A DNA stretch of 64,000 nucleotides from an uncultured Gemmatimonadaceae bacterium. Lineage in GTDB: Bacteria > Gemmatimonadota > Gemmatimonadetes > Gemmatimonadales > Gemmatimonadaceae. A program made the translations under genes and the position numbers. Numbering within the stretch: position 1 is the stretch's first letter; every line of letters begins with the position of its first letter. The stretch is from the NCBI GenBank assembly GCA_963740565.1, contig CAVUFA010000003.1:48137-112136 (forward strand). The letters are read 5' to 3'. Below are positions 46,248 through 61,392 of the stretch, one piece after another. Under the pieces are notes generated by a model that saw only the letters and a program-made list of their open reading frames with translations, was not told the origin of the DNA and did not search any database.

Positions 46248-46349
46248 ATGAGCCCCGTGATTTACCGCGAAGACGGATATCGTTTCTTCTTGAGGAATCG
46301 ACCTGCAATTCTTGAGGAGTGGTATGCGAGGTTCCCCGAAGCACCATAA
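46248..46349 (+). pseudogene. Internally deleted DUF4160 remnant
   Basis: Hand translation gives MSPVIYREDGYRFFLRNRPAILEEWYARFPEAP-stop (33 aa). The N-terminal ..Y.e.GYRFF and C-terminal ..I.EeW..f pieces of DUF4160 appear joined, without the central HvHv core. Confidence 0.35.
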
Positions 46350-46368
46350 GCCGCGCTCGGCCGCGCCC

Positions 46369-46692
46369 ATGTCATGGACGCCTGGAAGGGCGCGACCATA
46401 TAAAGGTCCGCGCGCTACGGGCGTCCGCGTAGTTCGCCGGCAGCTGATCGTCACGCTCGATGACTCCCGTGTGCTCATCGTGCCTCTCGAGATGCTTCCG
46501 GGACTCGATGCGGCGCCGGCGTCGGCCCGGAAGGTGCACGAACTATTGGGCGGCGGCATCGGAATTCGATTTCCGCTCTGCGACGAAGATGTTAGCGTCG
46601 CGAACCTGCTGCGACCGGAGATGGTGATGCACCATCAACGCCCCACTCGCGTGCAAGCCAAGCGCGAGCGAGCGCGCAGGGTGAAACCGTAG
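46369..46692 (+). CDS. DUF2442 domain-containing protein
   Basis: ...VRVVRRQLIVTLDDSRVLIVPLEMLPGLDAAPASARKVHELLGGGIGIRFPLCDEDVSVANLL. This family is the usual partner of DUF4160. Confidence 0.65.
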   Translation: MSWTPGRARPYKGPRATGVRVVRRQLIVTLDDSRVLIVPLEMLPGLDAAPASARKVHELLGGGIGIRFPLCDEDVSVANLLRPEMVMHHQRPTRVQAKRERARRVKP

Positions 46693-46695
46693 CAA

Positions 46696-47697
46696 CTACT
46701 TCGATTTCTCCGGCACGCCCAGCTCATGTCTCATCGATGCCGGAACCGGCTCATCGAGCTTCCAACGGACCGTGATCGGCTTGTCACCTTCCCAGCTCAC
46801 GAACCTGAGCGGCCCCGCATAGACGAACCCCATCGTCTTGCCCGCCTGCTTCGCGGCGGCACGCACAAAGAGATGCACGCCAATGTTCAACTGCTCGTGC
46901 CCAGCTAACCGCTTACCCGCATCGCTCTCCCGCGCCGTTCGGTTCTGACTCTGCCACTGAAACGTGGAAGGGTCCAGAAACGCATCGGTGTACTTGTGCT
47001 CCTCCGCTTCTCCCCGGTCCGGCGATAGCACGTACTCGTCGTTCAATCGCTGGAACATGACGCGATGACTGGTACCGGGCTGGCCCGCGCCTTCGCCGAA
47101 CCATTTTCGTAGCACTTCGCCGAGCACGTTCGCCTCGGCGCCTTTGCGATGCATGACGTTGACAGCGACCTTGACGAAGTTCGCGAGGTACGGCTCTGCA
47201 TCCGCGGTGACGTCAACCCAGCCTTCGGGAATCCCCGCTACCCTGTCGCGCGACGGGAGAAACAGGATGGGCTGACTGCCGGCGTGAGACACTCGGCACA
47301 CAATACGAGGCGCACCGTCCACGATTCCGGTCCGCCTGATGTACTGCGCGAGTCGCCACTCGGTGATCTCGCGAACCAACGCGGCAGTCGCATCACGGAG
47401 CGCATCGGGAACATCGAGGCGCGCTGCGAACTGCCTACTTTCGTAGCTGAAGTACTTCTCGCCGGCTGTACCCCTGCCGCCGACCCACGCGGCGATGGGG
47501 TGTTCCTCCAGGAGCGCGACTAGCGCAGAATCGTCGGCCAGCGCATCCGCGAATTCAGTCCGAAGCGCAGCACTTCGCTGCACGATGGTTCGCACGCGGG
47601 CAACAAGACGCTCGATCGTGATGGAGCCGGGGAGGGAGTCTTCCGCGAGCATCGCGAGGAGCACGACCATTTTGAAGCTCGGAGTGAGCGGAGTCAC
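46696..47697 (-). pseudogene. Orphan C-terminal (wH plus partial DUF3427 target-recognition) module, a paralogous fragment of the 50800 gene
   Basis: ORF 46696..47697 begins (GTG) exactly at the repeat boundary. It matches residues about 861-1228 of ORF 50800..54486 nearly identically. The 51 aa DSQPRYWQRYTRADVPKLFGFEFKAFESQSGVVERPGLVLLFVTLDKTGKP are missing. It keeps 18 C-terminal residues (EPVPASMRHELGVPEKSK) that the full-length gene has lost. Confidence 0.7.
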
Positions 47698-47698
47698 C
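46696..47698. repeat. Direct repeat copy A (about 1.0 kb) of the 3' end of the HIT-PLD-helicase-DUF3427 gene
   Basis: It aligns by eye to 50751-51900 at roughly 95 percent identity. It lacks a 153-bp in-frame block present in copy B (51055-51207) and carries 6 extra nt near 46703. Confidence 0.9.
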
Positions 47699-47716
47699 CA
47701 ACGTGCGAACCGGAGG

Positions 47717-48517
47717 CTACCTCACGCCGAGTATCCAGCCCTCGACCGTCGCGACCATCTGCTCGCTTGGCTTTAGGCCAGGATGCAGGAAGTCCAACAG
47801 CGCACCGCTGCTGTCGGCCTGTCGCAACCACGCGGCGACGGTATAGGCGTCGTGTTGATGGTCGTTGCGATCCTCACGAGGGAAGCTCTGCTTCCATAGA
47901 GAGGGATACACCTCGACTATCGCCGACCGGCCGACGGGGATCTCCCAACCGTCGAATGGCCAGAAGTGGAGGTGTTCGCCGAGTTGTCGGCGCAGATAGC
48001 GAAGCCAGGGAATGCCGGCATGCGTGGACTTGGCGACCGAGCCTTGGCAATCGAAGTGAAAGACCGACTTTGCGGCGCCGGCGCGGAGCTCGGTGATGCG
48101 GCGCCAGCGGGAGTTGCCCTGACGCGCGGCGCCGTTTCCATGCAATCCGTCGCGCACGAAGTCGACGTACATATTGTCGTCATCCGTCGGCCAATGGCGC
48201 TGGAAGTCGTCGAGGAACGCCGGCCAGTCCGGTGGCAAGCGATGCGTCTCGAAGTAGCGCAACGGGAAAGAGAACCCGTGGTCGATGCCGACGATCGTGC
48301 GGCGTTCTTCACGTAACTGCTCCACCAGCCACTCTGCGATGCCACGCCGAGTCCAATACTTTCGGGCGCTCGGGGGCGGTGGCACTTCGGTTGGTAGCGC
48401 TGCCCGATCTGCGGCGTATACCCTGAGTCCTTTGAGGCTCGCCGTGGGCACCTGAGCGCCGGAGTAATCGATGCCGATATAACGCGCGAATCGCGGAAGG
48501 CTGCGGACGTCTGACAT
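47717..48517 (-). CDS. Hypothetical protein, possibly RNase-H-fold (DUF429-like)
   Basis: Inner ATG at 48517 (MSDVRSLPRFARYIGIDYSGAQ...TIVGIDHGFSFPLRYF...AIVEVYPSLW...HQHDAYTVAAWL). The spaced acidic motifs (IGIDYSG, GIDHGF, VEVYP, HDAY) resemble DUF429. The assignment is tentative. Confidence 0.45.
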   Translation of the reverse strand: MSDVRSLPRFARYIGIDYSGAQVPTASLKGLRVYAADRAALPTEVPPPPSARKYWTRRGIAEWLVEQLREERRTIVGIDHGFSFPLRYFETHRLPPDWPAFLDDFQRHWPTDDDNMYVDFVRDGLHGNGAARQGNSRWRRITELRAGAAKSVFHFDCQGSVAKSTHAGIPWLRYLRRQLGEHLHFWPFDGWEIPVGRSAIVEVYPSLWKQSFPREDRNDHQHDAYTVAAWLRQADSSGALLDFLHPGLKPSEQMVATVEGWILGVR

Positions 48518-48525
48518 GACCGCGA

Positions 48526-48801
48526 TCAAGAGGGGTTCGTCAGCCAACGCTTGAGATCCTCGGCGGTTGTCAGCACACGAGAACGCTCCGCGATGGACGC
48601 ATGTATCTGGAGTGGCGAATAGCCGGTGGGCATCAGGGATTCTTCGTTGACGACCCAACAATGACGCCAGTTCTTGGGTCTCCCCGACAGGACCGAGCGA
48701 GGAATCGTTCCGACGAGTCCGGCCACCGCTCCGTACGTTGCCCTTTGGTGATACTGATTCAGTGAATCGAGAATCGTATCGAGCAGAGACATTGAGACCA
48801 T
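48526..48801 (-). CDS. MGMT-family / alkyltransferase-like DNA-binding domain protein (no active-site PCHR motif)
   Basis: 91 aa. Sequence ...QRATYGAVAGLVGTIPRSVLSGRPKNWRHCWVVNEESLMPTG. The tYG.vA...G..pR.V pattern of the MGMT DNA-binding domain is present, but CWVVN stands where PCHRV is expected. Confidence 0.55.
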   Translation of the reverse strand: MVSMSLLDTILDSLNQYHQRATYGAVAGLVGTIPRSVLSGRPKNWRHCWVVNEESLMPTGYSPLQIHASIAERSRVLTTAEDLKRWLTNPS

Positions 48802-48831
48802 GGTCCGATGGAACTGTTTGTTTCGATACCG

Positions 48832-49833
48832 CTAGGACGACCTCGGCCGACGCCAGACTCCTCGTGAGCGTGAACGCCTCGGCGCTGCCGCCGGTATGCT
48901 CGTCAGCTCAATGAGGTAACGAGGCGTAAACGTGCGTTGTGTCACCGTGACCGGCCCCATCTTCGCGACGTTGAAGGCCTTTACTTGTCCTGATTCAGCT
49001 TCCAAACCATAAAGTAGAAGGTTGCCGGTTTGCGGTCGTCTGAACGAGTAAGGTTCGACAGTCCGCATTTGACCGGAATACGGGAACGATACCATGAGAC
49101 GGTTGGCGCCGGCGAACCGAATGGTTTCGATGGGAGCCCCTTCTCGCCAGAGTCTCGCGCTGGGCGCAACGACCGTTGACTCGCCACCTCGCGTTGCAAT
49201 GGGCGCCAGAGCAGGCGCCGCGATCACTGCTTCCTCGAGCCACGCCAGCGCCTCCGGCAGCCTGTCAATGAAGGTCTCGACATCGACGACTTCTGGAAGC
49301 TGATGCGCGATCATGTCCCGCCAGTCGGCCCTGATTTCCTCCGACCTCCGAATGAGCTCCACCAGCTCGTCGCGTGATGGCGCGACCAGCGACTTGCTTC
49401 GGCACTTCTCGAGCCAGATCTCGCGAGCGCGTTCGGTGTCGATCTGCTCGCCGCTGAACGCGACATACACCACGTCGTACAGATCTCTCGGGCGCGCGCG
49501 TTCAAAAAGAGCGCGAGTCTTCTCGGCGAGTAACTCTTCGAGGGTGTATGTAGAAACGCTCGTGCCAGGCGGGAGTTGATCTGGATAGGAGTGAAAGATC
49601 GGACGTGCGTCGGGCTCATCGACGATGACCTCGTGTTGGGTGATATCGAAAAGCAGGCGAGGTGAGAGAAAACACTTCTTGAGACACGTTCCGCCCTTCA
49701 GAACCCAGTTGGTCGAGATCTGGGGGTCGCCGCCATCAGCAAGCACCCACCCGAGCACGTAGTCTTTCTCGACAACAGCTGGATTCAGGCGCCATTCGCG
49801 CGCGCGGTCGACGATATCCTGCTTGGTGATCAC
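48832..49833 (-). CDS. abiEii: AbiEii/AbiGii-family nucleotidyltransferase toxin homologue with a shortened catalytic region and a C-terminal WYL-like domain
   Basis: N-terminus REWRLNPAVVEKDYVLGWVL...VLKGGTCLKKCFL and later LEELLAEKTRALFERARPRDLYDVVYV are AbiEii hallmarks. The RFSEDLDF acidic motif is replaced by SPRLLFDIT. The C-terminal 90 aa (IRFAGANRLMVSFPYSGQMRTVEPYSFRRPQTGNLLLYGLEAESGQVKAFNVAKM) follow the WYL-domain pattern. Confidence 0.7.
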   Translation of the reverse strand: MITKQDIVDRAREWRLNPAVVEKDYVLGWVLADGGDPQISTNWVLKGGTCLKKCFLSPRLLFDITQHEVIVDEPDARPIFHSYPDQLPPGTSVSTYTLEELLAEKTRALFERARPRDLYDVVYVAFSGEQIDTERAREIWLEKCRSKSLVAPSRDELVELIRRSEEIRADWRDMIAHQLPEVVDVETFIDRLPEALAWLEEAVIAAPALAPIATRGGESTVVAPSARLWREGAPIETIRFAGANRLMVSFPYSGQMRTVEPYSFRRPQTGNLLLYGLEAESGQVKAFNVAKMGPVTVTQRTFTPRYLIELTSIPAAAPRRSRSRGVWRRPRSS

Positions 49834-49839
49834 CGGATG

Positions 49840-50676
49840 TTACCGCTGATGCACGTCGGCGTTGATCCAGAGGCCCCACCGTTTCGAGAGCTTGCCGCGT
49901 GACCGAATCGCGGGATCGAGCTTGATGTAACCGGCACTCTTGCGAGACAACAGCTCGTCGATCACAACAGTTTCGCCGACGCCCATTGTTTCGAGGAGCC
50001 AGCCGAGACGTTTGGCCTGGGCGCCGCCACGAAGCCGAGGGAGCTCGCGCACGAGATCCGCGACGGATCCCTTGGAAGAGTCCAGATAATTCGTCAACGC
50101 ATCAGCCACATTACGAACTCCCCCGAGCCACGATGGATCGCGCAGCGCGTCGACGAGCGTGCGTTCGCGCGATGAGACGTGCACCCGCTCGCTGCCTCTC
50201 CAGACGGTCGTTAGGTTGGCTATTCGTACAGCTGGCACTCGCTTGATGACAAAGCGAAGTCCCAGGACTGCAACTTCGCGCGCTCTCACCGAAGCGGCGG
50301 AGACCACGAACGTCTTCGCGAAGATCTGCTCGGTGAGCCCCCAATGTTCGGCTGCGCTCCACCCACCGATGTAGCAGGGAGTGAAGAGGTGGCTCGCCAC
50401 CAGCCATGGATCGTGATGTGTGGTGGTCGCGCCGGATTCGGCTTCAAGCGGTAGAATGAAGTACTGGCCGCGTCTCAGCCGCGTCACCCAACCAGTTCGC
50501 GCGAGGTTCGACAGAAGTGCCGAAGCTCGCCCGCGCGGACGCCCAAGGGTCACTGCCGCCGTGTTTACGTCGATGATCCCGCTCGGGGCTGAGCGGGCGA
50601 GCAGGGAGAGCGTGCGTTTGGCCTCGGAGGGGAGCGGCGCTGACATTTTTTTGGTATATTCTGCGTGTAGTAACAT
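49840..50676 (-). CDS. abiEi: AbiEi-family type IV TA antitoxin / transcriptional regulator
   Basis: N-terminal wHTH (LLSNLARTGWVTRLRRGQYFILP). AbiEi_4-like C-terminus (YIGGWSAAEHWGLTEQIF...SSRERTLVDALRDPSWLGG). It lies 6 nt upstream of abiEii. Confidence 0.85.
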   Translation of the reverse strand: MLLHAEYTKKMSAPLPSEAKRTLSLLARSAPSGIIDVNTAAVTLGRPRGRASALLSNLARTGWVTRLRRGQYFILPLEAESGATTTHHDPWLVASHLFTPCYIGGWSAAEHWGLTEQIFAKTFVVSAASVRAREVAVLGLRFVIKRVPAVRIANLTTVWRGSERVHVSSRERTLVDALRDPSWLGGVRNVADALTNYLDSSKGSVADLVRELPRLRGGAQAKRLGWLLETMGVGETVVIDELLSRKSAGYIKLDPAIRSRGKLSKRWGLWINADVHQR

Positions 50677-50750
50677 CGTCGTAACACCGATTACTACACG
50701 TAAACTATACCTAGTTGCCGATGAAAACGATGGGGCCTAGGGTAATGGAG

Positions 50751-51900
50751 CTACTTCTCCGGCACGCCCAGCTCGTCTCTCATCGGCGCCGGTACCGGCT
50801 CAGTCGAGCTTCCAACGGACCGTGATCGGCTTGTCACCTTCCCAGCTCACGAACCTGAGCGGTCCCGCATAGACGAACCCCAGCGTCTTGCCCGCCTGCT
50901 TTGCAGTGGCCCGAACGAAGAGATGCACTCCAATGTTCAACTGCTCGTGCCCAGCTAACCGCTTACCCGCATCGCTCTCCCGCGCCGTTCGGTTCTGACT
51001 CTGCCACTGAAACGTGGAAGGGTCCAGAAACTCATCGGTGTATTTGTGCTCCTCAGGCTTGCCAGTCTTGTCCAGCGTGACGAATAGCAGCACGAGCCCG
51101 GGTCGCTCGACCACGCCGGATTGCGATTCGAACGCCTTGAATTCAAAGCCAAACAGCTTCGGCACGTCCGCGCGCGTGTAGCGCTGCCAATAGCGTGGCT
51201 GCGAGTCCGCTTCTCCCCGGTCCGGCGATAGTACGTACTCGTCGTTCAATCGCTGGAACATGACGCGATGACTGGTGCCTGGCTGGCCCGCGCCTTCGCC
51301 AAACCATTTTCGCAGCACATCGCCGAGCACATTCGCCTCGGCGCCTTTGCGATGCATGACGTTGACAGCGACCTTGACGAAGTTCGCGAGGTACGGCTCT
51401 CCATCCGCGGTGACGTCAACCCAGCCTTCGGGAATCCCCGCCACCCTGTCGCGCGACGGGAGAAACAGGATGGGCTGACTGCCGGCATGAGACACTCGGC
51501 ACACAATACGCGGCGCACCGTCCACAATTCCGGTCCGCCTGATGTACTGCGCGAGTCGCCACTCGGTGATCTCGCGAACCAACGCGGCAGTCGCATCACG
51601 GAGCGCATCGGGAACATCGAGGCGCGCTGCGAACTGCTTACTCTCGTAGCTGAAGTACTTCTCGCCGGCTGTACCCCTGCCGCCGACCCACGCGGCGATG
51701 GGATGTTCCTCCAGGAGCGCGACTAGCGCAGCATCGTCGGCCAGCGCATCCGCGAATTCAGTCCGAAGCGCAGCACTTCGCTGAACGATGACTCGCACGC
51801 GGGCAACAAGACGCTCGATCGGGATGGAGCCGGGGAGGGCCTCTTCCGCGAGCATCGCGAGGAGCACGACCATCTTGAAGCTCCGCGTGAGCGGAGTCAC
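50751..51900. repeat. Direct repeat copy B (3' end of the full-length gene)
   Basis: See copy A. The homology ends at ...GAGCGGAGTCACC (about 51900 in B, about 47698 in A). Confidence 0.9.
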
Positions 51901-54336
51901 CTCGAGCGATTGCAGAAACGCTCGCAGCCGCGACTCGGCGGCGTCCGCGTCGGCGTCCAAGTCTCCCATGGTGCGCACGAACTGGAACCAGGAGCCGTAA
52001 CCCTGCCGAGTCGCTCGCGGATCGTAGCCGTCGTGAAATGCTTCGGTCGCGGTTGGGCGGACACCGTTGCGGTCGCGGAAGTCCGTGTAGTACGACATGA
52101 GCGCCTGTGGCCGGTCCATGTCGCGCTGCAGAAGCGTCCGCAGTATTTCGATGGCCTCGAGATCGTAGGTGACCGAGCAGCCGGGAGGCAGGAGTTCACC
52201 AGCGCGGCCTTCGTCGACCAGCCGAAGCGCGTATGCCGTGCTCGCGGCGCTTCCGTCCAACTGAAAGAGCGTGCGCGGCTTGAGGAGAAACGACCGATGG
52301 TTGCCGATGTAGTCGATGACTTTGAGCCGCTTCCCCGAGCGATAGCGAAGCCCTCGCCCGAACTGCTGCAGCCACAGCACCGGTGACTCCGTGGGGCGCA
52401 GCATGAGGATGGTGTCGACATCAGGCAGGTCCACGCCTTCATTGAACATGTCGACCGCGAAGAGCACATCGAGCTGACCATCCTGCAACTGCTCCAGCGA
52501 ACGGGCGCGTGGATCGCTCGTGGGCCCAGAATGGACGGACGCGCACCGGAGTCCGGCACCTAGGCAGAAATCTTTCATGAAGTCCGCGTGCCGTAGCGAC
52601 ACGCAGAAAGCGAGGGTTCGCGTTCCTCCGCGTCGTCGCATCTGATCGACGGCATTCTCGGCGCGGGACTCGATCGCGAGGCTCGCCGTGAGCTCCTTCT
52701 CGTCGAAACGCCCGTTGCGCCATGGAATGTTGGTGTAGTCAACTTCGTCCGGCACACCGTAGTAGTCGAAGGGGGCGAGCAGTCCTCGGCGAATTCCTTC
52801 GACGAGATCACACCGGTACACGAGGTTCTCGCCGCAAAGCGAGAGAAGATCCGCGCCGTCGGTGCGCTCGGGCGTTGCCGTGAGGCCAAGCAGGAAGCGC
52901 GGGGTAAAGTGATCCAACAGTCGTTGATACGTCGTCGCGCTGGCGTGATGAAACTCGTCGACAACGATGTAGTCGAACGCGGTAGCGAAGAAACGCTCGA
53001 GATGCGCCCGGCGATTCAGCGTTTGAATGGACGCGAAGGTGACGTCGGCATTCGTCTCGCGGCTGGCCCCCATGTATTTGCCGAGTATGGCCTGCGGACG
53101 GATAGTGCGAAACGTGCGCATGGCCTGGTCGAGAATCTCTTCGCGATGTGCCACGAAGAGCACGCGCTCGGCGCCAAAAGCCTCGGTGTCGAAGGCGCTC
53201 AGCCAGGTTTTGCCGAGCCCCGTCGCGAGAACGACGAGACCAGCGGTGTTCCCTTGGGCACGCGTGGCCGCCAGCGCTTCGAGCGCCTCGCGTTGAACAG
53301 GGTGCGGCTCGGGGACCAGAAGCGGGGGCTCGACAGGAACGGGCAACACAATGGCCTGCATGCGCCGTCGCTTCTGGTACGCCGCTATTACGTCAGGAGT
53401 AACGCGGACGGCTCGTTCGTCAGCGAAAACGTGCTCGAACGCATCGTGGACTGTCCGAAAACCAGCGCCATCGCGGGAGGTAATCACGCGATAGTTCCAC
53501 TCGATGCCCTCACGTAGCGCAGTCTGCGTGAGGTTCGAGCTTCCGACAAACGCCGTTCCCCGTCCGTCGCCTTCGGCGCAGATGTAGCTCTTGAGGTGGA
53601 AGCTCGTTCCGTCGGCCTGGAAGAAGCGGAGGTCAAGTCCTCCACCGATGTCCAGCAAGCGACGCAGAGCGTCTGGCTCGGTACCATCGAGGTAGTCTCC
53701 CGTCACCAGTCGCACTCTTCCGCCGCGGCCGATGACGTCGCGAAGGTGTTCCTCGACGAGCTTCACGCCGCTCACCATCGTGAAGGCGACCGCAATGTCG
53801 ACATGGCTCGCGCCGGCGATGTGCGAGACCAGGTGCGGAAGAAGCGGATCGCCGGCGCCTCGGATCAGCGGTTCGCCATGAGGGGCACCGGACTTCGCGG
53901 GATCGGTCAGGTAGTTGGCGAGCGACGGGATCACGAACCGCAACCCGCCACGCGGGTCGGGGAGGTCTCCCTTATACCTCGGAATCACATGCAGATGCAC
54001 GTGGTCTATCGTCTGACCAGCAGCCGCACCTACGTTGACGCCAATGTTGTATCCGTCGGGGGTGTGCTCCTGGTCAATGATGGCTCTTAACCGCGCGACC
54101 AGCGCAAGCATTTCCTGCTGCTCGGCCGGAGAAGTGTCGAACCAGCTGCTGATATGCCGTCGCGGTATGACAAGGCCGTGACCGGGCGAGACGGGGTGCG
54201 TGTCCCAAAGAGCTCGCGAACGCTCTTCGACAAGGAGACAGGCATCATCTGAAATGGAGCAGAGGGCGCAATCGATCGGAACGTGATCGCCGAGTGAGTC
54301 ATCAGGTGTGGGCTCTCGGGAGCGCTCGGTACTCAA
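50800..54336 (-). CDS. HIT domain / PLD-family nuclease / SF2 helicase / DUF3427 fusion protein (SauUSI-like type IV modification-dependent restriction enzyme architecture plus an extra N-terminal HIT domain)
   Basis: ORF 50800..54486. HIT: CALCSI...GHGLVIPRRH...GQTIDHVHLHVIPRY. PLD: VDIAVAFTM...FHLKSYICAEGDGRGTAFVGSSNLT. Helicase motifs: LATGLGKT (I), VVDEFHH (II), GLTATPER (III), QQFGRGLR (VI). C-terminal DUF3427 region: YWQRYTRADVPKLFG...FQWQSQNRT. The likely start is the TTG at 54336, overlapping the SprT-like stop (TTGA). The in-frame ATGs at 54423 and 54486 would overlap that gene by 90-150 nt. Confidence 0.85.
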   Translation of the reverse strand: MSTERSREPTPDDSLGDHVPIDCALCSISDDACLLVEERSRALWDTHPVSPGHGLVIPRRHISSWFDTSPAEQQEMLALVARLRAIIDQEHTPDGYNIGVNVGAAAGQTIDHVHLHVIPRYKGDLPDPRGGLRFVIPSLANYLTDPAKSGAPHGEPLIRGAGDPLLPHLVSHIAGASHVDIAVAFTMVSGVKLVEEHLRDVIGRGGRVRLVTGDYLDGTEPDALRRLLDIGGGLDLRFFQADGTSFHLKSYICAEGDGRGTAFVGSSNLTQTALREGIEWNYRVITSRDGAGFRTVHDAFEHVFADERAVRVTPDVIAAYQKRRRMQAIVLPVPVEPPLLVPEPHPVQREALEALAATRAQGNTAGLVVLATGLGKTWLSAFDTEAFGAERVLFVAHREEILDQAMRTFRTIRPQAILGKYMGASRETNADVTFASIQTLNRRAHLERFFATAFDYIVVDEFHHASATTYQRLLDHFTPRFLLGLTATPERTDGADLLSLCGENLVYRCDLVEGIRRGLLAPFDYYGVPDEVDYTNIPWRNGRFDEKELTASLAIESRAENAVDQMRRRGGTRTLAFCVSLRHADFMKDFCLGAGLRCASVHSGPTSDPRARSLEQLQDGQLDVLFAVDMFNEGVDLPDVDTILMLRPTESPVLWLQQFGRGLRYRSGKRLKVIDYIGNHRSFLLKPRTLFQLDGSAASTAYALRLVDEGRAGELLPPGCSVTYDLEAIEILRTLLQRDMDRPQALMSYYTDFRDRNGVRPTATEAFHDGYDPRATRQGYGSWFQFVRTMGDLDADADAAESRLRAFLQSLEVTPLTRSFKMVVLLAMLAEEALPGSIPIERLVARVRVIVQRSAALRTEFADALADDAALVALLEEHPIAAWVGGRGTAGEKYFSYESKQFAARLDVPDALRDATAALVREITEWRLAQYIRRTGIVDGAPRIVCRVSHAGSQPILFLPSRDRVAGIPEGWVDVTADGEPYLANFVKVAVNVMHRKGAEANVLGDVLRKWFGEGAGQPGTSHRVMFQRLNDEYVLSPDRGEADSQPRYWQRYTRADVPKLFGFEFKAFESQSGVVERPGLVLLFVTLDKTGKPEEHKYTDEFLDPSTFQWQSQNRTARESDAGKRLAGHEQLNIGVHLFVRATAKQAGKTLGFVYAGPLRFVSWEGDKPITVRWKLD

Positions 54337-54905
54337 CGCGCCACCGATCCTCTGTGTGTCGCGCGCTGAGTCGGCACAGCCCGCGTTGCGACCAAACGAG
54401 TTAGGAGGCCGTTGGTCTGACATTCGGGACACAACCAGGCTGACATCACTCGTCGCGCTCGGCGGCGCCATTGGCACACCGGGCATGTGTGCACGACGGC
54501 CGGGGCAACGCTCTGTGCGCTTCTACTCTCAACACCACGTGCTGACACACCGCGCGGTGCGGCCGTCACTGTTGGCGGGTAGCCTGCTGCCCTAACGAGT
54601 GCAGCCCATTCGGGACCGTGGGCTCGCGGGGGAGCTGCACCCTTGGCGGCGGCTTGCCAAAATGCGACGACGTGCGCGGCCTCGTGGCAGAGCACTCGAA
54701 GCAAGCGGTCTCTCGAGCCGCGTCTGAGGGCGGCACTTAGGGTTACCTGTCCAGTGGAGGGAACGGCACGACCGAGCGTGCGCTGGAGGCGCGTACTGAA
54801 GTTGACTGTGAGCTCTTTGTGGAGCGTGGGCACGTGCCACCGCTCGCCCAGTCGACGAACGGCTGCATCAATCGTGGAATCCGGTGCGCGAGATCGCTGA
54901 GTCAT
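54333..54905 (-). CDS. SprT-like zinc metalloprotease domain protein with a C-terminal zinc ribbon
   Basis: 190 aa. HExxH in LLRVLCHEAAHVVAF, followed by HGPEWAALV. CxxC...CxxC (CPVCQWRRRARRVMSAWLCPEC). Its ATG overlaps the NUDIX stop (ATGA). Confidence 0.75.
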   Translation of the reverse strand: MTQRSRAPDSTIDAAVRRLGERWHVPTLHKELTVNFSTRLQRTLGRAVPSTGQVTLSAALRRGSRDRLLRVLCHEAAHVVAFWQAAAKGAAPPRAHGPEWAALVRAAGYPPTVTAAPRGVSARGVESRSAQSVAPAVVHTCPVCQWRRRARRVMSAWLCPECQTNGLLTRLVATRAVPTQRATHRGSVAR

Positions 54906-55306
54906 GCGCTTGCGGCCGCATTGTTTGAAAGCCGGAACTCGACATATCGGCGATCACTTGGGGCGAGAGGCAGCGCAAGGAGTGAATCAGGCAGCGCCCA
55001 TTTCATGTCGATGTGTTCATGACATGTCGGATTGCCCTCGATGGAGACGGGGACAAAGGCGATGAGAAATGCTGACCCAGGGTCGGCGATCGCGAACTCC
55101 TCGACGCCCACGGCGGTGACCTGGACGCCGAGTTCTTCGCGCAGTTCCCGGTACGCGGCCTCAAAGTCGCTCTCGCCGGGCTCGCACTTGCCGCCGGGGA
55201 ATTCCCAAAGGCCCCCGTGGCGTTTGTGGTGAGGGCGTTGGCAGATGAGCACCTGGTCGCCACGGCTGATGACGGCGGCGATAACGCGAACATTAGGCTC
55301 GGGCAT
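54902..55306 (-). CDS. NUDIX hydrolase (MutT-like (d)NTP pyrophosphohydrolase)
   Basis: ATG at 55306 (MPEPNVRVIAAVISRGDQVLICQR). NUDIX box GGLWEFPGGKCEPGESDFEAAYRELREELGV. Confidence 0.85.
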   Translation of the reverse strand: MPEPNVRVIAAVISRGDQVLICQRPHHKRHGGLWEFPGGKCEPGESDFEAAYRELREELGVQVTAVGVEEFAIADPGSAFLIAFVPVSIEGNPTCHEHIDMKWALPDSLLALPLAPSDRRYVEFRLSNNAAASA

Positions 55307-55520
55307 GAGGCAAAACTGCGTGCGCATGAAGCTGAGCGCCAGAACTCGCGGCTTCGTATCGGTATTGCGAGCAACAACAGTATAGAGCGTGCTCAGCACG
55401 GACCTTCTTAATGGACCGCCAGGGAAGTTCTTCACTGGACAATCGAGCTAGGCTATCCGTGAAGGTATCAGCGATGAAGAAGTTCACGCGTCGGTCCGAG
55501 ACCTTGACCCTACGATGTGC

Positions 55521-56384
55521 TCATTTCCCAATCAGCGGGCACGCTCGAACGAGATCTGCGAGCGTATCCACAGCATGTTCGAAGCGAGTGCGTAACTGTT
55601 GGTCCCGTTGCTGCAACTCCTTACGGGTGCTTGGCGCATGCCCGGACTGATTTCGATGCGGTGTTAGACCGCGAACTCGCGCCCACAACGCCTTGTCAAT
55701 TCGTACTGTACTTGCCAACAGCTTGGGAAAGTCGGCGTTCAGATCAACGTATTCCAGTACCCTTGCCCACGCGGCGGTTCTAAACCTGGGCTTCGACGGA
55801 GGGGGCAGGGTTCTCCACAACAACAACCGGTCGATCTCGGTCGCAACGGTTCGGCTTCCCTTCTCGATCAGGTCGTAGACACGACCGCACCCTTTCGCGG
55901 CGTCCCCGTTGCGAAACGTCTCTTCGGCTTGATGGAGTTGCGCAAAGTAGCCTCTTGGATACCGAGTTCGATCTACCGGCCTGACACCAAAGAGTGATAA
56001 TGAGACCGCGGGGAGCAGCGACCGGACCGTTTTTCCATCGAATTCCACGACTCCTATGCCCCGTTTTCTAGCCTGACGCACGAGATTGAGAAGTTGGGCG
56101 GCTGGCCCTCCAGAGGGAACGGCGACGAACAGCCTGATGGGAAGGCCCGCGGTGAGGCACTCTACGACGAACGTGTCAAGTGCGTTCGTGTACGTGCCAT
56201 CGTTCACTTCAATGGCGAGTATACTCTTGTCGTGGTTCTCCGCCGAGAGAGTTGGCCGGTAAGACAGGTCGCTTGCGATTTCCTCCTCTGCGCGGAAGCG
56301 CTTCGCACCTTCCATCTTCGCGAAGTGCTTTCGTGCAGCTTCAGCGACAGGCACAAGAGAGCCGGCCAATGCACGATACTGCAT
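55521..56384 (-). CDS. Hypothetical 287-aa protein; the C-terminal helical region contains an R-N-x-x-x-H (HEPN-like) motif
   Basis: ORF with operon-like spacing (2 nt after the ParB-like stop). No family recognised in the N-terminal half (SILAIEVNDGTYTNALDTFVVECLTAGLPIRLFVAVP). The C-terminal half is helical, with LTPHRNQSGHAP. Confidence 0.55.
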   Translation of the reverse strand: MQYRALAGSLVPVAEAARKHFAKMEGAKRFRAEEEIASDLSYRPTLSAENHDKSILAIEVNDGTYTNALDTFVVECLTAGLPIRLFVAVPSGGPAAQLLNLVRQARKRGIGVVEFDGKTVRSLLPAVSLSLFGVRPVDRTRYPRGYFAQLHQAEETFRNGDAAKGCGRVYDLIEKGSRTVATEIDRLLLWRTLPPPSKPRFRTAAWARVLEYVDLNADFPKLLASTVRIDKALWARVRGLTPHRNQSGHAPSTRKELQQRDQQLRTRFEHAVDTLADLVRACPLIGK

Positions 56385-56386
56385 TC

Positions 56387-57334
56387 TTACTTCCCCAGAA
56401 GGTCGCGGGCCACACTTACCAACGCGCGCAACCTCTTACGGAGCTCAACGTCGATGTCTTCGGGATGCAGTTGCTTCAATCGCTGCAGCAAACCGTCCAG
56501 ACGAACGGCGATGTCCTTCTCCGTATAGGCGCCGGCGACCGTGTGCTCGTACGCCTGGGCTATGGAGTAGTCGTTGGAGGTGAACAAACGGCTAAGCGCC
56601 TTCTTAGCGGCCGGTACATTCGCCTTCACGCGCGCAGCACGGGCAATCTTGGCCACGTCCCGAAAGTGCGTACGGTTCGCGATCACGTCGGTCCTAAATT
56701 TCTGGACGAGGACACGCCTGACCTTGTTCTTGTCATCAATGACATCAGGCATCGCCCGCTCGACGGTGGTGAGGGCGCGTTCCATCTCGATGAAGAAATC
56801 CTCCGTAAGGCGCTGTTCTCGTTTGGGTTTCTTCAGTTCGCTCTGAAGCTGTTCCTGGAACTCTGCTGGGAGCCCCAGGAGGTAACGACAGCGGCGTATG
56901 ACACCTCTTGCAAGTCCGGTATTCCTGGCGATTTCTGCCTCGGTGGGGCGACTCTTCTTCGCGCGCTCTAGCAGGTTGATGATGACAGCTAGCTTGGTAG
57001 CAATGGTCAAAAGGTCCCACTGCTCTCGGAGCGCGTGGATGTTGAACATCAAAAGCAGGTTCGTAAGGCGGTCGGGCTTCTCCTGAACGAGTGCGGGAAT
57101 GGTCTTGAGGTTCAGCTTAAGAGCGCAGCGCCAGCGCCTTTCGCCGTCGATCAACACAAAGCGTCCTTTCTCGCGATACACAGATACGGGAACCTGTATT
57201 CCGTGAATCGCGATCGACTCCATTAGTTCGTCCATCTCCTTCTGCCGGAAGTGGATCCTGGGATTCTCGCGGTTGGGATCCACGCTATCGACCCTGATTT
57301 GAGCGAGTGTGGCGTTGGCAGCATCAATGGGCAT
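56387..57334 (-). CDS. ParB/Srx N-terminal-domain protein with a central HTH
   Basis: IRVDSVDPNRENPRIHFRQKEMDELMESIAIHGIQVPVSVYREKGRFVLIDGERRWRCALKLNLKTIPALV is the ParB N-domain, including the GERRW box. HTH-like segment PTEAEIARNTGLARGVIRRCRYLLGLP. Confidence 0.8.
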   Translation of the reverse strand: MPIDAANATLAQIRVDSVDPNRENPRIHFRQKEMDELMESIAIHGIQVPVSVYREKGRFVLIDGERRWRCALKLNLKTIPALVQEKPDRLTNLLLMFNIHALREQWDLLTIATKLAVIINLLERAKKSRPTEAEIARNTGLARGVIRRCRYLLGLPAEFQEQLQSELKKPKREQRLTEDFFIEMERALTTVERAMPDVIDDKNKVRRVLVQKFRTDVIANRTHFRDVAKIARAARVKANVPAAKKALSRLFTSNDYSIAQAYEHTVAGAYTEKDIAVRLDGLLQRLKQLHPEDIDVELRKRLRALVSVARDLLGK

Positions 57335-57343
57335 CGGCGATCC

Positions 57344-58201
57344 TCAGATCGGCGCTGTGTTCGAAATGATCAACTCGTAAGCGAAACGTCGATTGTCAGC
57401 GAACCCGGCGATCTGGCGGCGCACTCGCACTCGACGATGGATCCAGTTGACCGCAAGCTTTCGTGCCTCCGAACAGTCGGCGAAGCTGAGGAGAAACTTC
57501 GCTCCCCTGGCGTGGAGCTTGTCGAGGTGCGCACCAAGTCGATCGATGTCTTGTTGTAGAAACCTTCGCGGACCGTAGTCGCGAAACACACGCCGAGCAC
57601 GCACGAAGAAAGGAGGGTCTAGGTAAACGAAGTCGCCGTTGCGTACATCGCGCAGCGTGTGGCCGAAATCGCAAGAGCGTAGGCGCGCAGTCTTCAATCG
57701 GTCTGCTGCATTGATGAAGTCAGCTAGCGCCGGCATCGCACCCGTGCGCGAAGGCGCAAAGGGAACGTTGAATTGCCCACTGTTATTCGTACGATAGAGA
57801 CCGTTGAAGCAGTTGCGATTCAAATAGAGAAAGCGAACGGCCCTGCGGGCTTTCGCAATGCGGGCGGGCACCAGCGTGCGAAGCGCTTCATACGTGGCTG
57901 GCGTTTGAGGAATGCTCGTCACCTCACGCCAAAGCGTTACCGGATCGTCCCGTAGTTCCTCGTAGAATTCGATGAGGTGACTGTTCGAGTCCGCCAAGAG
58001 TGCGCGTGCAGGTCGTATGACGAAGAAAAGCGCAGACGAACCGCAAAACGGTTCTACGTATCGCTCGAAATCAGGAGACCAATACTGTCGAAGCAGTGGG
58101 AGAAGCTGCCGCTTGCTACCTGCCCAGCGTAGGATGGGTCGTCCACTGGCCTCCGGTACTGGTGATGAGGGCACACTCACTTGGTCGTCCCGGACTGACA
58201 C
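57344..58201 (-). CDS. Dam-family (D12-class) N6-adenine DNA methyltransferase
   Basis: Motifs LRWAGSKRQLLP, YVEPFCGSSALFF (SAM binding), FVYLDPPF (DPPY-type catalytic motif). Confidence 0.85.
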   Translation of the reverse strand: MSVRDDQVSVPSSPVPEASGRPILRWAGSKRQLLPLLRQYWSPDFERYVEPFCGSSALFFVIRPARALLADSNSHLIEFYEELRDDPVTLWREVTSIPQTPATYEALRTLVPARIAKARRAVRFLYLNRNCFNGLYRTNNSGQFNVPFAPSRTGAMPALADFINAADRLKTARLRSCDFGHTLRDVRNGDFVYLDPPFFVRARRVFRDYGPRRFLQQDIDRLGAHLDKLHARGAKFLLSFADCSEARKLAVNWIHRRVRVRRQIAGFADNRRFAYELIISNTAPI

Positions 58202-58990
58202 GCGAGATCAACGACGAGTAGCTCCTTGCAGCGGAAACGGCGGGAATCAGGCGCGCCTTCGACGGGCGCGCCGAGTTGTCGCGCGCTGTCAAGGTGTCCG
58301 GTGTGACCGATAAAGCGAACGGTGACGTCTACCGCGTCGGTCTCTCCGAGCTCCCACGCATCGGACGATCGTGCATGCTTGCGAAGATCGAATGATGCCG
58401 GCACGTCGAAGTCCGAAGAGTTGGGTCGCGCACTGTTGGCCTTGGGCCGTCGCACTCGACTGAGCCGATTATTCCGCAACGCTGCACGATCGAGGTCGTA
58501 ACCGACGAGGTATCCGTTGGAGCCGAGGAAGAACACTCCATATGATTGCACACGACGCTGCGCGACCTCATCCCGCTCCATCGACCTGTACGAGAACGAC
58601 AGCTCCTTGCGTCGCGACAGAGCACTGGCGGCTATTTCGAACACATACGCGCACGAGCGGCGCGCCGGCTTCGTGGCCCGCGTTGCTTTGCCCTTTTTCG
58701 TACTCTTCACTCGATCGCGCGGCACTGATTCCTCATGGTCTGCTGAAGGCACGCTTCAATATCGCAGGGGTCCTCGCTGGCGCTCTGACTCCTCGGGATG
58801 ACGGGAACTTCCACTAGCAATCGTACCGGTTTACCGAGAGCGAGATCAACACGCCACGTAACGTGGCGATACATGGCGTCACCTCCTGGCTAACGACTGC
58901 AGTGTGCGTCTCGGGGGATAAACGCATGGTGGGCCGCACGTTCAGCGCCCGGTATCGGTTCACAGAAGTGGCTCCGCTTTTCTGTACAGC
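58177..58990 (-). pseudogene. Decayed PafBC/WYL-type regulator (WYL plus WCX domains retained, HTH region frameshifted)
   Basis: ORF 58177..58752 has the WYL-domain pattern (LSFSYRSMERDEVAQRRVQSYGVFFLGSNGYLVGYDLDRAALRNNRLSRV) but no HTH. Upstream pieces in two other frames (…VSQEVTP… and MYRHVTWRVDLALGKPVRLL from the ATG at 58874 with an AGGAGG RBS) look like remnants of the usual LA.elgVS.RTiyRDi..L...G.Pi helix-turn-helix. Confidence 0.5.
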
Positions 58991-59181
58991 TTCACGGGGT
59001 GAGCTCACGGGATCGGCGAGCGGGGTTAGGCTGGCGCGGGAAGCGACAGCAGGAGGAAGTAGGCCTCAGCACCCAGTTCACGCATTCCGCACCGGGCACT
59101 CGGTGTCCGTCCGGGTGAATGACCTCCTCGGATTCGGCGGGGTATGCTCTGCTTCACGTCTCGAACGGAGGAAGTAGCCTC

Positions 59182-59886
59182 ATGCGACTGCTCACCCCCT
59201 TGTTGCTGGTGCTTGCGGCGCCCCTCGCCGGGGCACAGGTCCCGACAGCGGGAGACAGCGCGCCGGTGACTATTGCGGTCACCGGACAGGGCCAGCACTC
59301 CGTGCCTGCCGATGAGTTGATCGTGCAGCTGGCGGTGGACACACGTGCCCGGACCGCGAGTCGCGCCGGTGCGGACAACGCCGATCGGATGACCGCCGTG
59401 CAGAAGGCGCTCCGCGAGATCGGCCTGACACAGGACGAAATCTCGACGGCGTTCTATACGATTCGCTTCGATTATGGTCCCCAGATGCGCGACACGCAGT
59501 ACGTCGCGACCAACTCGGTGCGCGTGGACACGCGGCGACTGGAACTCGTGAGTCGGATCATCGATACGGCCCTGCAATCGGGCGCCACCACGGTTGCCGG
59601 CGTGCAGTACACGCTGCGCGACAGTCGTGATGCGACGCGCCAGGCGCTCACCGACGCCGTGGCCGACGCAAAGCTCCAGGCCGAGGCCGTGGCTGCCGCA
59701 GCGGGCGGGCGGTTGGGAGACCTCCTGGGGCTCGAGGCGCAGCCGAATCGCCCCGGACCGATCCCATACGGGCAGTTCGCGCTGGCGTCCGGTGGAATGG
59801 CTCGCGCGGAGACCCCGATTTCACCGCGTGACATCACCGTAACGGCGATAGTCACGGCGCGCTGGCGGTTCGTCGCGTCCAGATAG
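59182..59886 (+). CDS. SIMPL-domain (DUF541) periplasmic protein
   Basis: Signal peptide MRLLTPLLLVLAAPLAGAQ. Pattern ...VTIAVTGQGQHSVPADELIVQLAVDTRA...AVADAKLQAEAVAAAAGGRLGDLLGL...ITVTAIVTARWRF. Confidence 0.8.
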   Translation: MRLLTPLLLVLAAPLAGAQVPTAGDSAPVTIAVTGQGQHSVPADELIVQLAVDTRARTASRAGADNADRMTAVQKALREIGLTQDEISTAFYTIRFDYGPQMRDTQYVATNSVRVDTRRLELVSRIIDTALQSGATTVAGVQYTLRDSRDATRQALTDAVADAKLQAEAVAAAAGGRLGDLLGLEAQPNRPGPIPYGQFALASGGMARAETPISPRDITVTAIVTARWRFVASR

Positions 59887-60073
59887 AGAATCGATCCGGA
59901 GGCGGGCGCCGGCGGAGGGTCGCCGAAAGACGGTGGAGGTCAGGGTTTCCCTCGCGGCGGCACCGGCCCGGACCGCGCAGCCCACGTCGGGTAGTGGGTC
60001 CTCAAACTGACTCACTACCCCCACGTCGCGCGGCCTTGCATCCGCGGCGGGTCGGGCGCACTATCGCGCGCAG

Positions 60074-60982
60074 ATGACATCCTCCAGTGATGAGCCCCGG
60101 CGCTACCGCAGCCTCGATGATCCAGAGACGCTGCGGCTCCTGGCGCGCACCCTGGGTGAGGGGATCTACGTCACCGACCGGGACGGGCGCATACTGGACT
60201 GCAATCCCGCGTTCCTCGACATCTTCGGCGTGTCGTCGCTCAAGGGCCTGGAGCAGTTCCACGCGTCCGACCTGCTCGCCGACCCCGAGCGGCGCCGGAT
60301 CGAGCTGAAGGAGCTGGAGCGGGAGGGCAGCGTGCGGGATTTCGAGCTCGAAATCGTGCGGCCGGACGGGCAGCGACGGACGGTGCTCGACACGACCTAT
60401 CAGGTGCGGGATCCGGGATCCGGTGAGGTGTTCTATCACGGCGTGCTGATCGACATCACGGCGCGCAAGGAACTGGAGCGCCAGTTGCGCGAGCAGCTGA
60501 TACGTGACGCGCTCACCGGCTGCTACAATCGCCGCTTTCTCCTCGACCTCGAGGACGACCTCGAGCGTCAGGCGGAGACGCGCTGGGGGTGCATCTACAT
60601 CGATATCGATCACTTCAAGGTCTACAACGACCGCCATGGGCATCAGAACGGCGATCAGGTGCTGCGGCGGATGGCGCGCTTTCTGATGCGCGAGGTTCGC
60701 GCCGACGAGCCGGTGGTTCGCATGGGCGGAGACGAGTTTGTGATTGCACTCAGCGGCGAGAACGCCGAGCGCACCGAGACGGTGGCGACGCGGCTGCACC
60801 ACAGCGCGGCGCGCAGCGCGCCGGTGGCATTTTCGTTGGGTTGGGCGAAGCGGGCGGAAGGGGAGACCTTCGAGGAGACGATGGCCCGCGCCGACAAGAA
60901 CCTGATCGGGGTGCGGGTGCTCTCGCGTTCGGGCGAGTGGTCGTCGCTTCCGCCCGAAATGGAACGTCGGCGGCGGCGCTAG
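60074..60982 (+). CDS. PAS-domain diguanylate cyclase (GGDEF)
   Basis: PAS segment (LGEGIYVTDRDGRILDCNPAFLDIFG...RTVLDTTYQVRD...FYHGVLIDITARKELE). GGDEF domain (DALTGCYNRRFL...IYIDIDHFKVYNDRHGHQNGDQVL...VRMGGDEFVIAL). Confidence 0.9.
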   Translation: MTSSSDEPRRYRSLDDPETLRLLARTLGEGIYVTDRDGRILDCNPAFLDIFGVSSLKGLEQFHASDLLADPERRRIELKELEREGSVRDFELEIVRPDGQRRTVLDTTYQVRDPGSGEVFYHGVLIDITARKELERQLREQLIRDALTGCYNRRFLLDLEDDLERQAETRWGCIYIDIDHFKVYNDRHGHQNGDQVLRRMARFLMREVRADEPVVRMGGDEFVIALSGENAERTETVATRLHHSAARSAPVAFSLGWAKRAEGETFEETMARADKNLIGVRVLSRSGEWSSLPPEMERRRRR

Positions 60983-60990
60983 CCTCGCCC

Positions 60991-61392
60991 ATGCCGCTGC
61001 GGCTTCCGGCTCCGTGGCGCGGGCTGCTCGTCGCGGCCGCGCTCATCCTCTCGGGCACCGCCATGTTGCAGGCCACGGCCTACCCGGATCTCACGCGGAC
61101 CCTCCGGGCGGCAGGACTGGACCGGGCAGCCACGTCAACGCTCGAAGGGCTGTGGCTGATGTTCCCGGTTCATCTGCTGTTCATCGCGGCCTTCCTCGTC
61201 CTGGCCGCTGTCCGCGTGCGCATCGCCGCCGACTCGGGGCTGCTGGTGTGCGCGCTCATCCTCGCCGCCGACACCGCGTTGCTCGGCGGATTCATGGGAA
61301 TGTTCACCGGCACGGTGCTGGTCGGGGTCTCGACCGGCCTCGTGATCATCGCCCGCCTCATTCGGCAGGCGATGCTCGCCGGTACCGCCTAG
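60991..61392 (+). CDS. Hypothetical integral membrane protein (4 predicted TM segments)
   Basis: MPLRLPAPWRGLLVAAALILSGTAML...LWLMFPVHLLFIAAFLVLAAV...LLVCALILAADTALLGGFMGMF...VLVGVSTGLVIIARL. Its TAG stop lies within the CTAG duplicated by the IS5 insertion. Confidence 0.5.
   Translation: MPLRLPAPWRGLLVAAALILSGTAMLQATAYPDLTRTLRAAGLDRAATSTLEGLWLMFPVHLLFIAAFLVLAAVRVRIAADSGLLVCALILAADTALLGGFMGMFTGTVLVGVSTGLVIIARLIRQAMLAGTA

Follow-up and report, generated by a model that had tools for sequence, protein, structure and literature searches.

Why is the 3′ end of one gene present twice, in the same orientation, on either side of a set of unrelated genes? The question is posed by a 64,000-nucleotide (nt) stretch of DNA from an uncultured Gemmatimonadaceae bacterium (contig CAVUFA010000003.1, positions 48,137 to 112,136 of the forward strand; called here the window). 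The full-length gene concerned encodes Hel, a HIT-fused protein resembling the type IV restriction enzyme SauUSI, and ends in one copy of a 3′ module (copy B). It is followed by a cassette of 3052 nt with four open reading frames (ORFs), namely AbiEi, AbiEii and ORFs of 91 and 266 amino acids (p91 and p266), beyond which lies a second, orphan copy of the module (copy A). The helicase gene, the cassette genes and copy A are all on the minus strand. We lean towards the view that copy A is what remains of an older resident allele, pushed aside within a defence island that turns over fast.

Self-blastn of the window returns the repeat as two direct blocks, 47003-47698 against 51206-51901 (696 nt, 96.4% identity, E 0.0) and 46706-47004 against 50755-51054 (300 nt, 94.3%, E 3e-129), which together pair 46706-47698 with 50755-51901 on the same strand at 94-96% identity; the same search finds no further long repeat. 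The duplication is real and far above chance. This confirms the same-strand repeat of about 1 kb in the original prediction, a reading of this stretch made from its letters and ORFs, and the 3052-bp insert with four genes that it described is likewise found. Alignment to SauUSI, with domain limits taken from the available text of PMC7913695, places the start of the repeat within the second subdomain of the coupler, from where it continues through the SRA-like recognition domain, so delimiting copy B as the 3′ module of Hel (50755-51901, minus strand). The homology ends at the ancestral stop codon, which is TAG at 46696-46698 in copy A and a relic TAG at 50751-50753 in copy B.

Both copies are damaged, in the two ways that had been predicted and that base-by-base alignment bears out. 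Copy A (46696-47698, minus strand) is a 5′-truncated module with a frame open over 333 codons and the conserved tail retained, and it lacks 153 nt (copy B 51055-51205) in frame, with the deletion junction at 47003/47004. The 51 amino acids lost form the beginning of the DUF3427/SRA core, a stretch that homologues conserve strongly; the Pfam model PF11907 (DUF3427) scores 74.6 bits on copy B and 62.8 bits on copy A, where it covers only model positions 177-278. In copy B a single additional base at about 50803 creates a premature TGA at 50800-50802 (the lesion spanning 50800-50803, minus strand) and cuts off an 18-residue tail conserved in the protein family (...VPxxLRxxLRVP...). The tail-coding relic persists out of frame at 50751-50799 (minus strand), ending in the ancestral TAG. 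The extra base is absent from copy A and from the related copies on four other contigs (L081-L084), and because all four lack it we take it to be derived in copy B, where it could be a true mutation or an assembly error.

The divergence between the two copies bears on their origin. Identity between A and B is 94.3%, compared with 95.0% between B and L081 and 95.2% between B and L082, and the two copies resemble each other no more closely than alleles of different genomes do. Synonymous divergence (dS) between A and B is 0.106, similar to the 0.13-0.14 measured to alleles of other genomes, and non-synonymous divergence (dN) is 0.019, giving a dN/dS of 0.18 with 13 non-synonymous differences in 313 codons. 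As the differences are mainly synonymous, most of this divergence would have arisen while both copies were parts of working genes, not after a duplication in situ. When unique changes are polarised with L081 and L082, 29 fall to copy A, with 19 of these (66%) in the third position of a codon, and 3 to copy B. Across seven successive blocks the changes unique to A number 10, 4, 3, 3, 7, 1 and 3 and those unique to B 0, 0, 2, 0, 1, 0 and 1; there is no switch of ancestry along the repeat, within the small numbers of sites that each block provides. A diversity-generating retroelement was considered and ruled out, as the 42 mismatches include all substitution types with adenine in A at 9 and in B at 10, and no ORF scanned between 40.5 and 63.4 kb matches a reverse transcriptase family.

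Relatives of the module place copy A more precisely. A family survey of species-representative genomes gave 297 candidate stretches, the closest of which encodes a protein 58% identical to Hel; a JGI metagenome scan gave no relative above 59% identity, and a protein search for close relatives found two close clusters only. Among the best 80 family loci from other species, all inspected, none has a high-identity second copy or the cassette genes nearby, and multiple matches within a locus, apart from the divergent tandem paralogues of L042, L050 and L070, reflect indels or frameshifts inside one gene, not second copies. At the nucleotide level the 3′ module is found at 90% identity or above on the four other contigs only, in every case as a remnant. 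The L081 remnant, which is preceded by unrelated DNA, begins at the equivalent of 52030 and is the sole related copy with an intact frame; L082-L084 carry frameshifts, a stop codon or a deletion. L082 is the same chromosomal locus, its first 2.4 kb being 95-97% identical to window 58962-61386, and there the island genes differ and the module survives as a 1.5-kb remnant, frameshifted and beginning at the equivalent of 52258. L084 is a damaged copy with an in-frame stop and a fifth downstream context, on a contig that begins inside the module. L083, from an independent short-read metagenome, has one orphan, which starts at the equivalent of 51740, bears its own 157-nt deletion, and is followed by the same DUF2442 and DUF4160 genes as copy A (93.7% identity to window 46292-47004). 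In the 1.8 kb upstream of it on its contig there is neither cassette nor second copy, and a peptidase gene is found instead. Copy A is thus positionally orthologous to a cassette-free remnant.

This orthology, together with the lack of a neutral-decay pattern and of an ancestry switch, leads us to regard copy A as the older resident allele, and copy B with the cassette as incoming. The two copies are independent alleles in a patchwork, degraded locus; the order of events and the recombination mechanism we infer as follows. DNA of a related strain would have entered the locus carrying another allele of the gene, the 3′ part of which is now copy B, and with it the AbiE/p91/p266 cassette. On its upstream side the incoming DNA would have paired with homologous sequence of the gene or of the island and recombined there. 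On its downstream side the incoming end, 18 nt past the p266 stop codon, would have been joined illegitimately to a position inside the resident gene (equivalent to 51901), and alignment puts this junction at 47698/47699. The resident 3′ end and its DUF2442/DUF4160 neighbours would thereby have been shifted downstream and orphaned, in an event of the homology-facilitated illegitimate type that has been proposed to underlie C-terminal displacement. Displacement is supported by the way the cassette and its neighbours are built of pieces, with an AbiEii that lacks its catalytic motif and C-terminus and a DUF4160 gene truncated at its 5′ end.

Several points weigh against this reading. Among the relatives examined we found neither the expected donor arrangement, a full-length gene followed by the cassette with no orphan, nor the expected ancestral one, a full-length A-type allele followed by DUF2442. 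The ancestry argument draws on few sites (29 versus 3) and two to four comparators, and of the 11 sites uniting A with B, 8 fall in one 105-nt tract, so that some recombination among alleles has obscured the tree. If copy A had been under temporary purifying selection after an event in situ, the synonymous bias would not discriminate between the two histories. Displacement also leaves unaccounted for the precision with which homology ends at the stop codon in five downstream contexts, and the structure of the locus is that of an assembled contig.

Alternative histories must accommodate the same evidence. The original prediction named first Campbell-type integration, in which a circular, non-replicating DNA carrying the cassette and a piece of the gene (extending from the equivalent of 51901 as far as the stop codon) enters by one homologous crossover within that piece. 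The architecture is exactly as this predicts, with direct gene-fragment repeats that bracket foreign genes and a sharp internal boundary, and the broader proposal of the original prediction, a partial-gene duplication around foreign genes produced by recombination with incoming DNA, is retained here. Integration of this type should however leave chimeric copies with a switch of ancestry, whereas changes unique to A are spread over all seven blocks and those unique to B are almost lacking; the cassette has no integrase, relaxase or replication gene, and orphans of the same module elsewhere, with other 5′ limits and no cassette, fit repeated displacement or deletion better. We consider it unlikely. 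An exchange between two tandem paralogues, a second origin that had been suggested, finds no support, as the paralogues in L042, L050 and L070 are only about 36% identical, lack HIT and belong to a different subfamily. Segmental duplication of the 3′ end in situ, by template switching or unequal exchange, with the cassette acquired then or later and the spare copy decaying neutrally, would account for lesions in both copies, for the much longer A branch (29 versus 3) and for a dN/dS somewhat raised, as in a relaxed copy. Neutral decay predicts an even spread over codon positions, but 66% of the changes unique to A are at third positions and an A-B dN/dS of 0.18 is far from neutral; nor does duplication in situ sit easily with an A-B dS near the values between genomes, or with a downstream context that copy A has in common with L083, where no second copy or cassette lies in the 1.8 kb upstream. 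This history we judge very unlikely.

Two further possibilities deny that any such replacement took place or that its scar is inert. The repeat could be an artefact in which two strain haplotypes were strung into one contig, and indeed the source is evidently a metagenome assembly and strain variants of the locus co-occur in nature (L081-L084). Against this, the p266/copy A junction at 47698/47699 lies in unique sequence with no repeat to mislead assembly, the copies differ by 4-6% and by indels and so are not one sequence used twice, and the independent short-read assembly L083 also has an orphan with a unique upstream junction; an artefact is in our view less probable still than duplication in situ. 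Least probable of all is a functional silent cassette or switch, with copy A kept as a recombination partner so that a crossover excises the cassette and swaps the recognition end, as with orphan toxin modules or hsdS half-genes. The orphan frame is still open, and a crossover in the 251-nt block 50804-51054/46754-47004 would yield a 1246-aa ORF with the SRA core of B and the tail of A and the cassette lost, so that excision or end-swapping between the copies appears feasible from the hybrid ORFs. As a module the orphan nevertheless differs little (13 non-synonymous differences in 313 codons) and lacks 51 highly conserved core residues, and a crossover in the 696-nt block would import that deletion and inactivate the gene. 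Related remnants are broken by frameshifts, by a stop codon or by deletions, a search for a recombinase and for inverted or site-specific repeats came up empty, and nothing in the sequence indicates use of the decaying orphan or a programmed switch.

Displacement of a resident allele, the history we prefer, does not by itself explain two regularities. In all six close copies the homology ends within a few bases of the stop codon, at window 50751-50755 and 46696-46706, L081:1578-1603, L082:6752-6777 and L084:540-551 among the sites located, and five different sequences follow. Three of these five downstream contexts open with small convergent genes of toxin-antitoxin type; one is AbiE. The stop-codon-precise ends possibly reflect selection for intact, tightly packed genes, or a gene end that is prone to recombination. 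A bolder reading is that the 3′ module is an exchangeable unit with a recombination point at the stop codon, displaced time and again, like the ends of polymorphic toxins, together with any small toxin-antitoxin-like module that follows it, the orphan perhaps serving also as a repair template; if true, one crossover in the 251-nt block would simultaneously restore the lost tail of Hel and remove the dead cassette. We regard this as quite unlikely.

The second regularity concerns independent inactivating lesions, which cluster at the start of the SRA-like core (equivalent to window 51055-51351). Here fall the 153-nt deletion of copy A, the overlapping 157-nt deletion of L083, the stop codon of L084 and the two frameshifts of L082. 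A more distant family member, L044 from a metagenome-assembled genome of the Spirochaetaceae (46% identical), has its first ~1040 residues intact and a degenerate 3′ end, with its lesion at L044:13153-13183; it has lost residues 247-303, compared with 252-302 in copy A. This clustering could reflect selection against binding of 5-methylcytosine (5mC), or a fragile sequence. The four known 5′ ends of remnants, for their part, lie within 520 nt of the 3.7-kb gene.

The full-length gene encodes, in a 1228-aa ORF counted from the first ATG (50800-54486, minus strand), a HIT domain, a candidate PLD nuclease domain, a superfamily 2 (SF2) helicase, a coupler and a DUF3427/SRA-like domain, as recognised by Pfam (HIT, PLDc_2, ResIII, Helicase_C and DUF3427), PADLOC and the SauUSI crystal structure 7CLG. 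The 1178-aa length originally predicted is plausible, as relatives align from about residue 73 of this ORF and the true start is probably further in than the first ATG, which is what gives the longer figure. The gene call of the source itself (P0125, 1103 aa) begins within the HIT domain. Hel matches the PADLOC model mREase_IV, for type IV methyl-directed restriction enzymes, at E 1e-118 and the sequence of 7CLG at E 2e-82 over residues 207-882, and by these matches it is a SauUSI-like type IV restriction enzyme with a fused HIT domain. Its ATPase is well defined (ResIII 130 bits, Helicase_C 52 bits, with GLGKT, DEFH, TATP and QQFGRGLR all found), and the helicase and HIT motifs are intact. 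The PLD region aligns with 7CLG from chain residue 32, and PLDc_2 is matched at E 7e-6 and 26.3 bits, slightly below the 27-bit cut-off; HxK and GSSN are visible, but the classical HxK(x)4D spacing is not seen. Cleavage of DNA containing 5mC or 5-hydroxymethylcytosine (5hmC) by Hel is uncertain, because the premature stop cuts off the conserved 18-aa tail.

SauUSI itself, the 5mC/5hmC-dependent type IV enzyme of Staphylococcus aureus (PMC3141236, PMC7913695), has in the available text of these papers a PLD nuclease, to which the candidate region of Hel corresponds, followed as in Hel by an SF2 ATPase, a helical coupler (residues 618-805) and a C-terminal SRA-like/DUF3427 recognition domain (806-953; both limits from PMC7913695). 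Hel differs in its additional N-terminal HIT domain, in its length (1228 versus 953 aa) and in the conserved C-terminal tail that has been frameshifted off, and that same text mentions no orphan copies of the recognition domain for SauUSI. The HIT and SauUSI-like fusion is widespread, with 297 related stretches among species-representative genomes. In some distant relatives (L050:10001-16149, L070:10001-16844 and L042:2866-7724) the HIT-PLD-helicase gene has behind it a second gene of PLD-helicase-DUF3427 type, the paralogue of another subfamily dealt with above, and in L050 and L042 the match to the first gene ends at about residue 1038, ahead of the SRA-like core; this suggests a two-gene variant of the system. 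To our knowledge the fusion of HIT to a SauUSI-like enzyme is uncharacterised.

The cassette between the copies opens with an AbiE pair, only half of which looks intact. AbiEi (49840-50676, minus strand), the antitoxin and regulator with its winged-helix and C-terminal domains, matches Pfam AbiEi_1 and PADLOC AbiEi (E 4e-64 over residues 16-273). Across its start lies an inverted repeat with 21-nt arms and a 17-nt spacer (50653-50711), which by analogy resembles the operator of an autoregulated AbiE promoter. The AbiEii toxin (48832-49833, minus strand) is defective: its PADLOC profile match skips from position 56 to 136, a gap seen also with Pfam, and alignment to a 463-aa homologue (P0247, 71% identical) shows that 77 aa are gone in frame, including the RFSEDLDF nucleotidyltransferase motif, and that the C-terminus is about 55 aa short. 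The toxin is thus dead, whereas AbiEi and the operator-like repeat look intact.

The remaining two ORFs had been described as an MGMT-like and RNase-H-like pair. For p91 (48526-48801, minus strand) that description is unsupported, as it has no match in Pfam, NCBIfam or PDB sequence searches, and it is not seen beside homologues of p266 elsewhere. The 266-aa p266 (47717-48517, minus strand) also lacks a Pfam or PDB sequence match, but there is weak support at the level of fold: the matches of its predicted structure are sub-threshold and all RNase H-like (the RuvC-like resolvase MOC1, RNase HI and the Argonaute PIWI domain), so that this protein possibly has an RNase H-like fold. Its family, very large and highly conserved, occurs in defence islands, with at least 8000 database matches at 70-79% identity, about 260-265 aa long and from many phyla. 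Relatives (L085-L094) stand at the 3′ end of diverse defence operons, among them MmeI-like with Hachiman, type I restriction-modification and HEPN/MNT. An uncharacterised defence-island protein this strongly conserved merits separate study.

Nothing marks the cassette as a mobile element in its own right. Scans of its ORFs against Pfam, PADLOC and NCBIfam/PDB gave no integrase, relaxase or replication gene, its ends have no terminal inverted or direct repeats, the AbiE operator-like one being the sole notable inverted repeat, and there is no transfer RNA (tRNA) gene in the window. A scan for consensus promoters and terminators gave nothing informative. The nearest non-self matches in the databases searched are at 79% for p266 and 71% for AbiEii, and no close relative of the cassette was found. 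A regular link between cassette and helicase can be ruled out, with AbiEi, AbiEii, p91 or p266 within 10 kb in none of the 80 species-representative loci.

The surroundings are those of an island, with a G+C content of 57-64% compared with 66-70% in the flanks. Facing copy A is a convergent DUF2442 gene (46293-46692, plus strand, including what precedes it), its stop codon 3 nt from that of copy A. Of its DUF4160 partner only the last 18 codons survive, ahead of it (46293-46346, plus strand); the full 56-aa DUF4160 gene is kept in L083. The DUF4160 truncation junction, at about 46292, adjoins a Ser/Thr kinase gene. Upstream of Hel the island continues (54902-58962, minus strand) with genes for a NUDIX protein, a 287-aa ORF, a ParB_N protein, a Dam-like N6-adenine methyltransferase and a WYL protein. 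The block 54902-58752 is co-oriented on the minus strand, its NUDIX protein matches the PADLOC candidate PDC-S07, and it is missing from the syntenic L082 locus; it may be a separate defence module. Synteny between the window and L082 resumes at 58962 with a SIMPL and PAS-GGDEF flank.

The locus offers an allele-resolved case of the rebuilding of a defence island, in which incoming DNA would have overwritten part of a resident gene and left a datable scar. It also calls for caution in annotation, as a "DUF3427 protein" of 140-400 aa that stands alone in a metagenome can be what is left of a SauUSI-like gene and not a genuine small protein. If the stop-codon-precise ends and the recurrent loss of the recognition segment prove general, they would shed new light on the loss and replacement of modification-dependent restriction enzymes.

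How far does the locus conform to known systems? Some integrative elements carry the 3′ end of their target gene, be it a tRNA gene, a transfer-messenger RNA gene or one of some protein genes, and so generate direct repeats at both ends. As proposed here, sequence brought in by the element rebuilds the gene, and the old 3′ end comes to lie beyond the insert, but such elements depend on a site-specific integrase acting at a short core site, whereas this locus has no integrase, a 1-kb repeat and 5′ limits that vary between strains. Another known process is homology-facilitated illegitimate recombination. Described for transformable bacteria (de Vries and Wackernagel 2002, Prudhomme 2002, Meier and Wackernagel 2003, as cited in PMC5361080) and in E. 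coli conjugation (PMC3240628), it accounts for foreign DNA joined by homology on one side and illegitimately on the other, as at 47698/47699. There the process is experimentally defined, while here it would be read from the end product alone.

The closest analogy is that to which the original prediction had pointed, the orphan C-terminal modules of polymorphic toxins. C-terminal displacement and orphan modules are known from the Rhs, CdiA and type VI secretion system (T6SS) effector-immunity loci (Jackson 2009 and Poole 2011, as cited in PMC5361080; Kirchberger 2017, PMC5361080; Koskiniemi 2014, PMC3967940), and the mechanism preferred here is the one proposed for Rhs loci and, as sequential displacement, for Vibrio T6SS loci (PMC5361080). 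In the Rhs, CdiA and T6SS cases, as at our locus, a full-length gene is followed by a 5′-truncated 3′ copy in the same orientation, pushed downstream by a new 3′ end and its accessory genes; a homologous anchor is proposed at one end and an illegitimate join at the opposite end, and the 5′ limits of the remnants vary by strain. The orphan and resident ends of Hel are, moreover, of independent allelic origin (dN/dS 0.18; 29 versus 3 unique changes), as displacement entails. The likeness is of history and not of function. The displaced ends of those systems encode distinct toxins, each with an immunity gene, and can be reactivated, whereas here the same recognition module (94-96% identity) is displaced in a damaged state with nothing to show its use, an unrelated and partly dead gene set would have come with the new end, and the downstream neighbour of copy A is DUF2442 with a truncated DUF4160, not an immunity gene. 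Most likely, then, the repeat is an ordinary genomic scar, a new example of C-terminal displacement in a type IV restriction gene that calls for no new mechanism.

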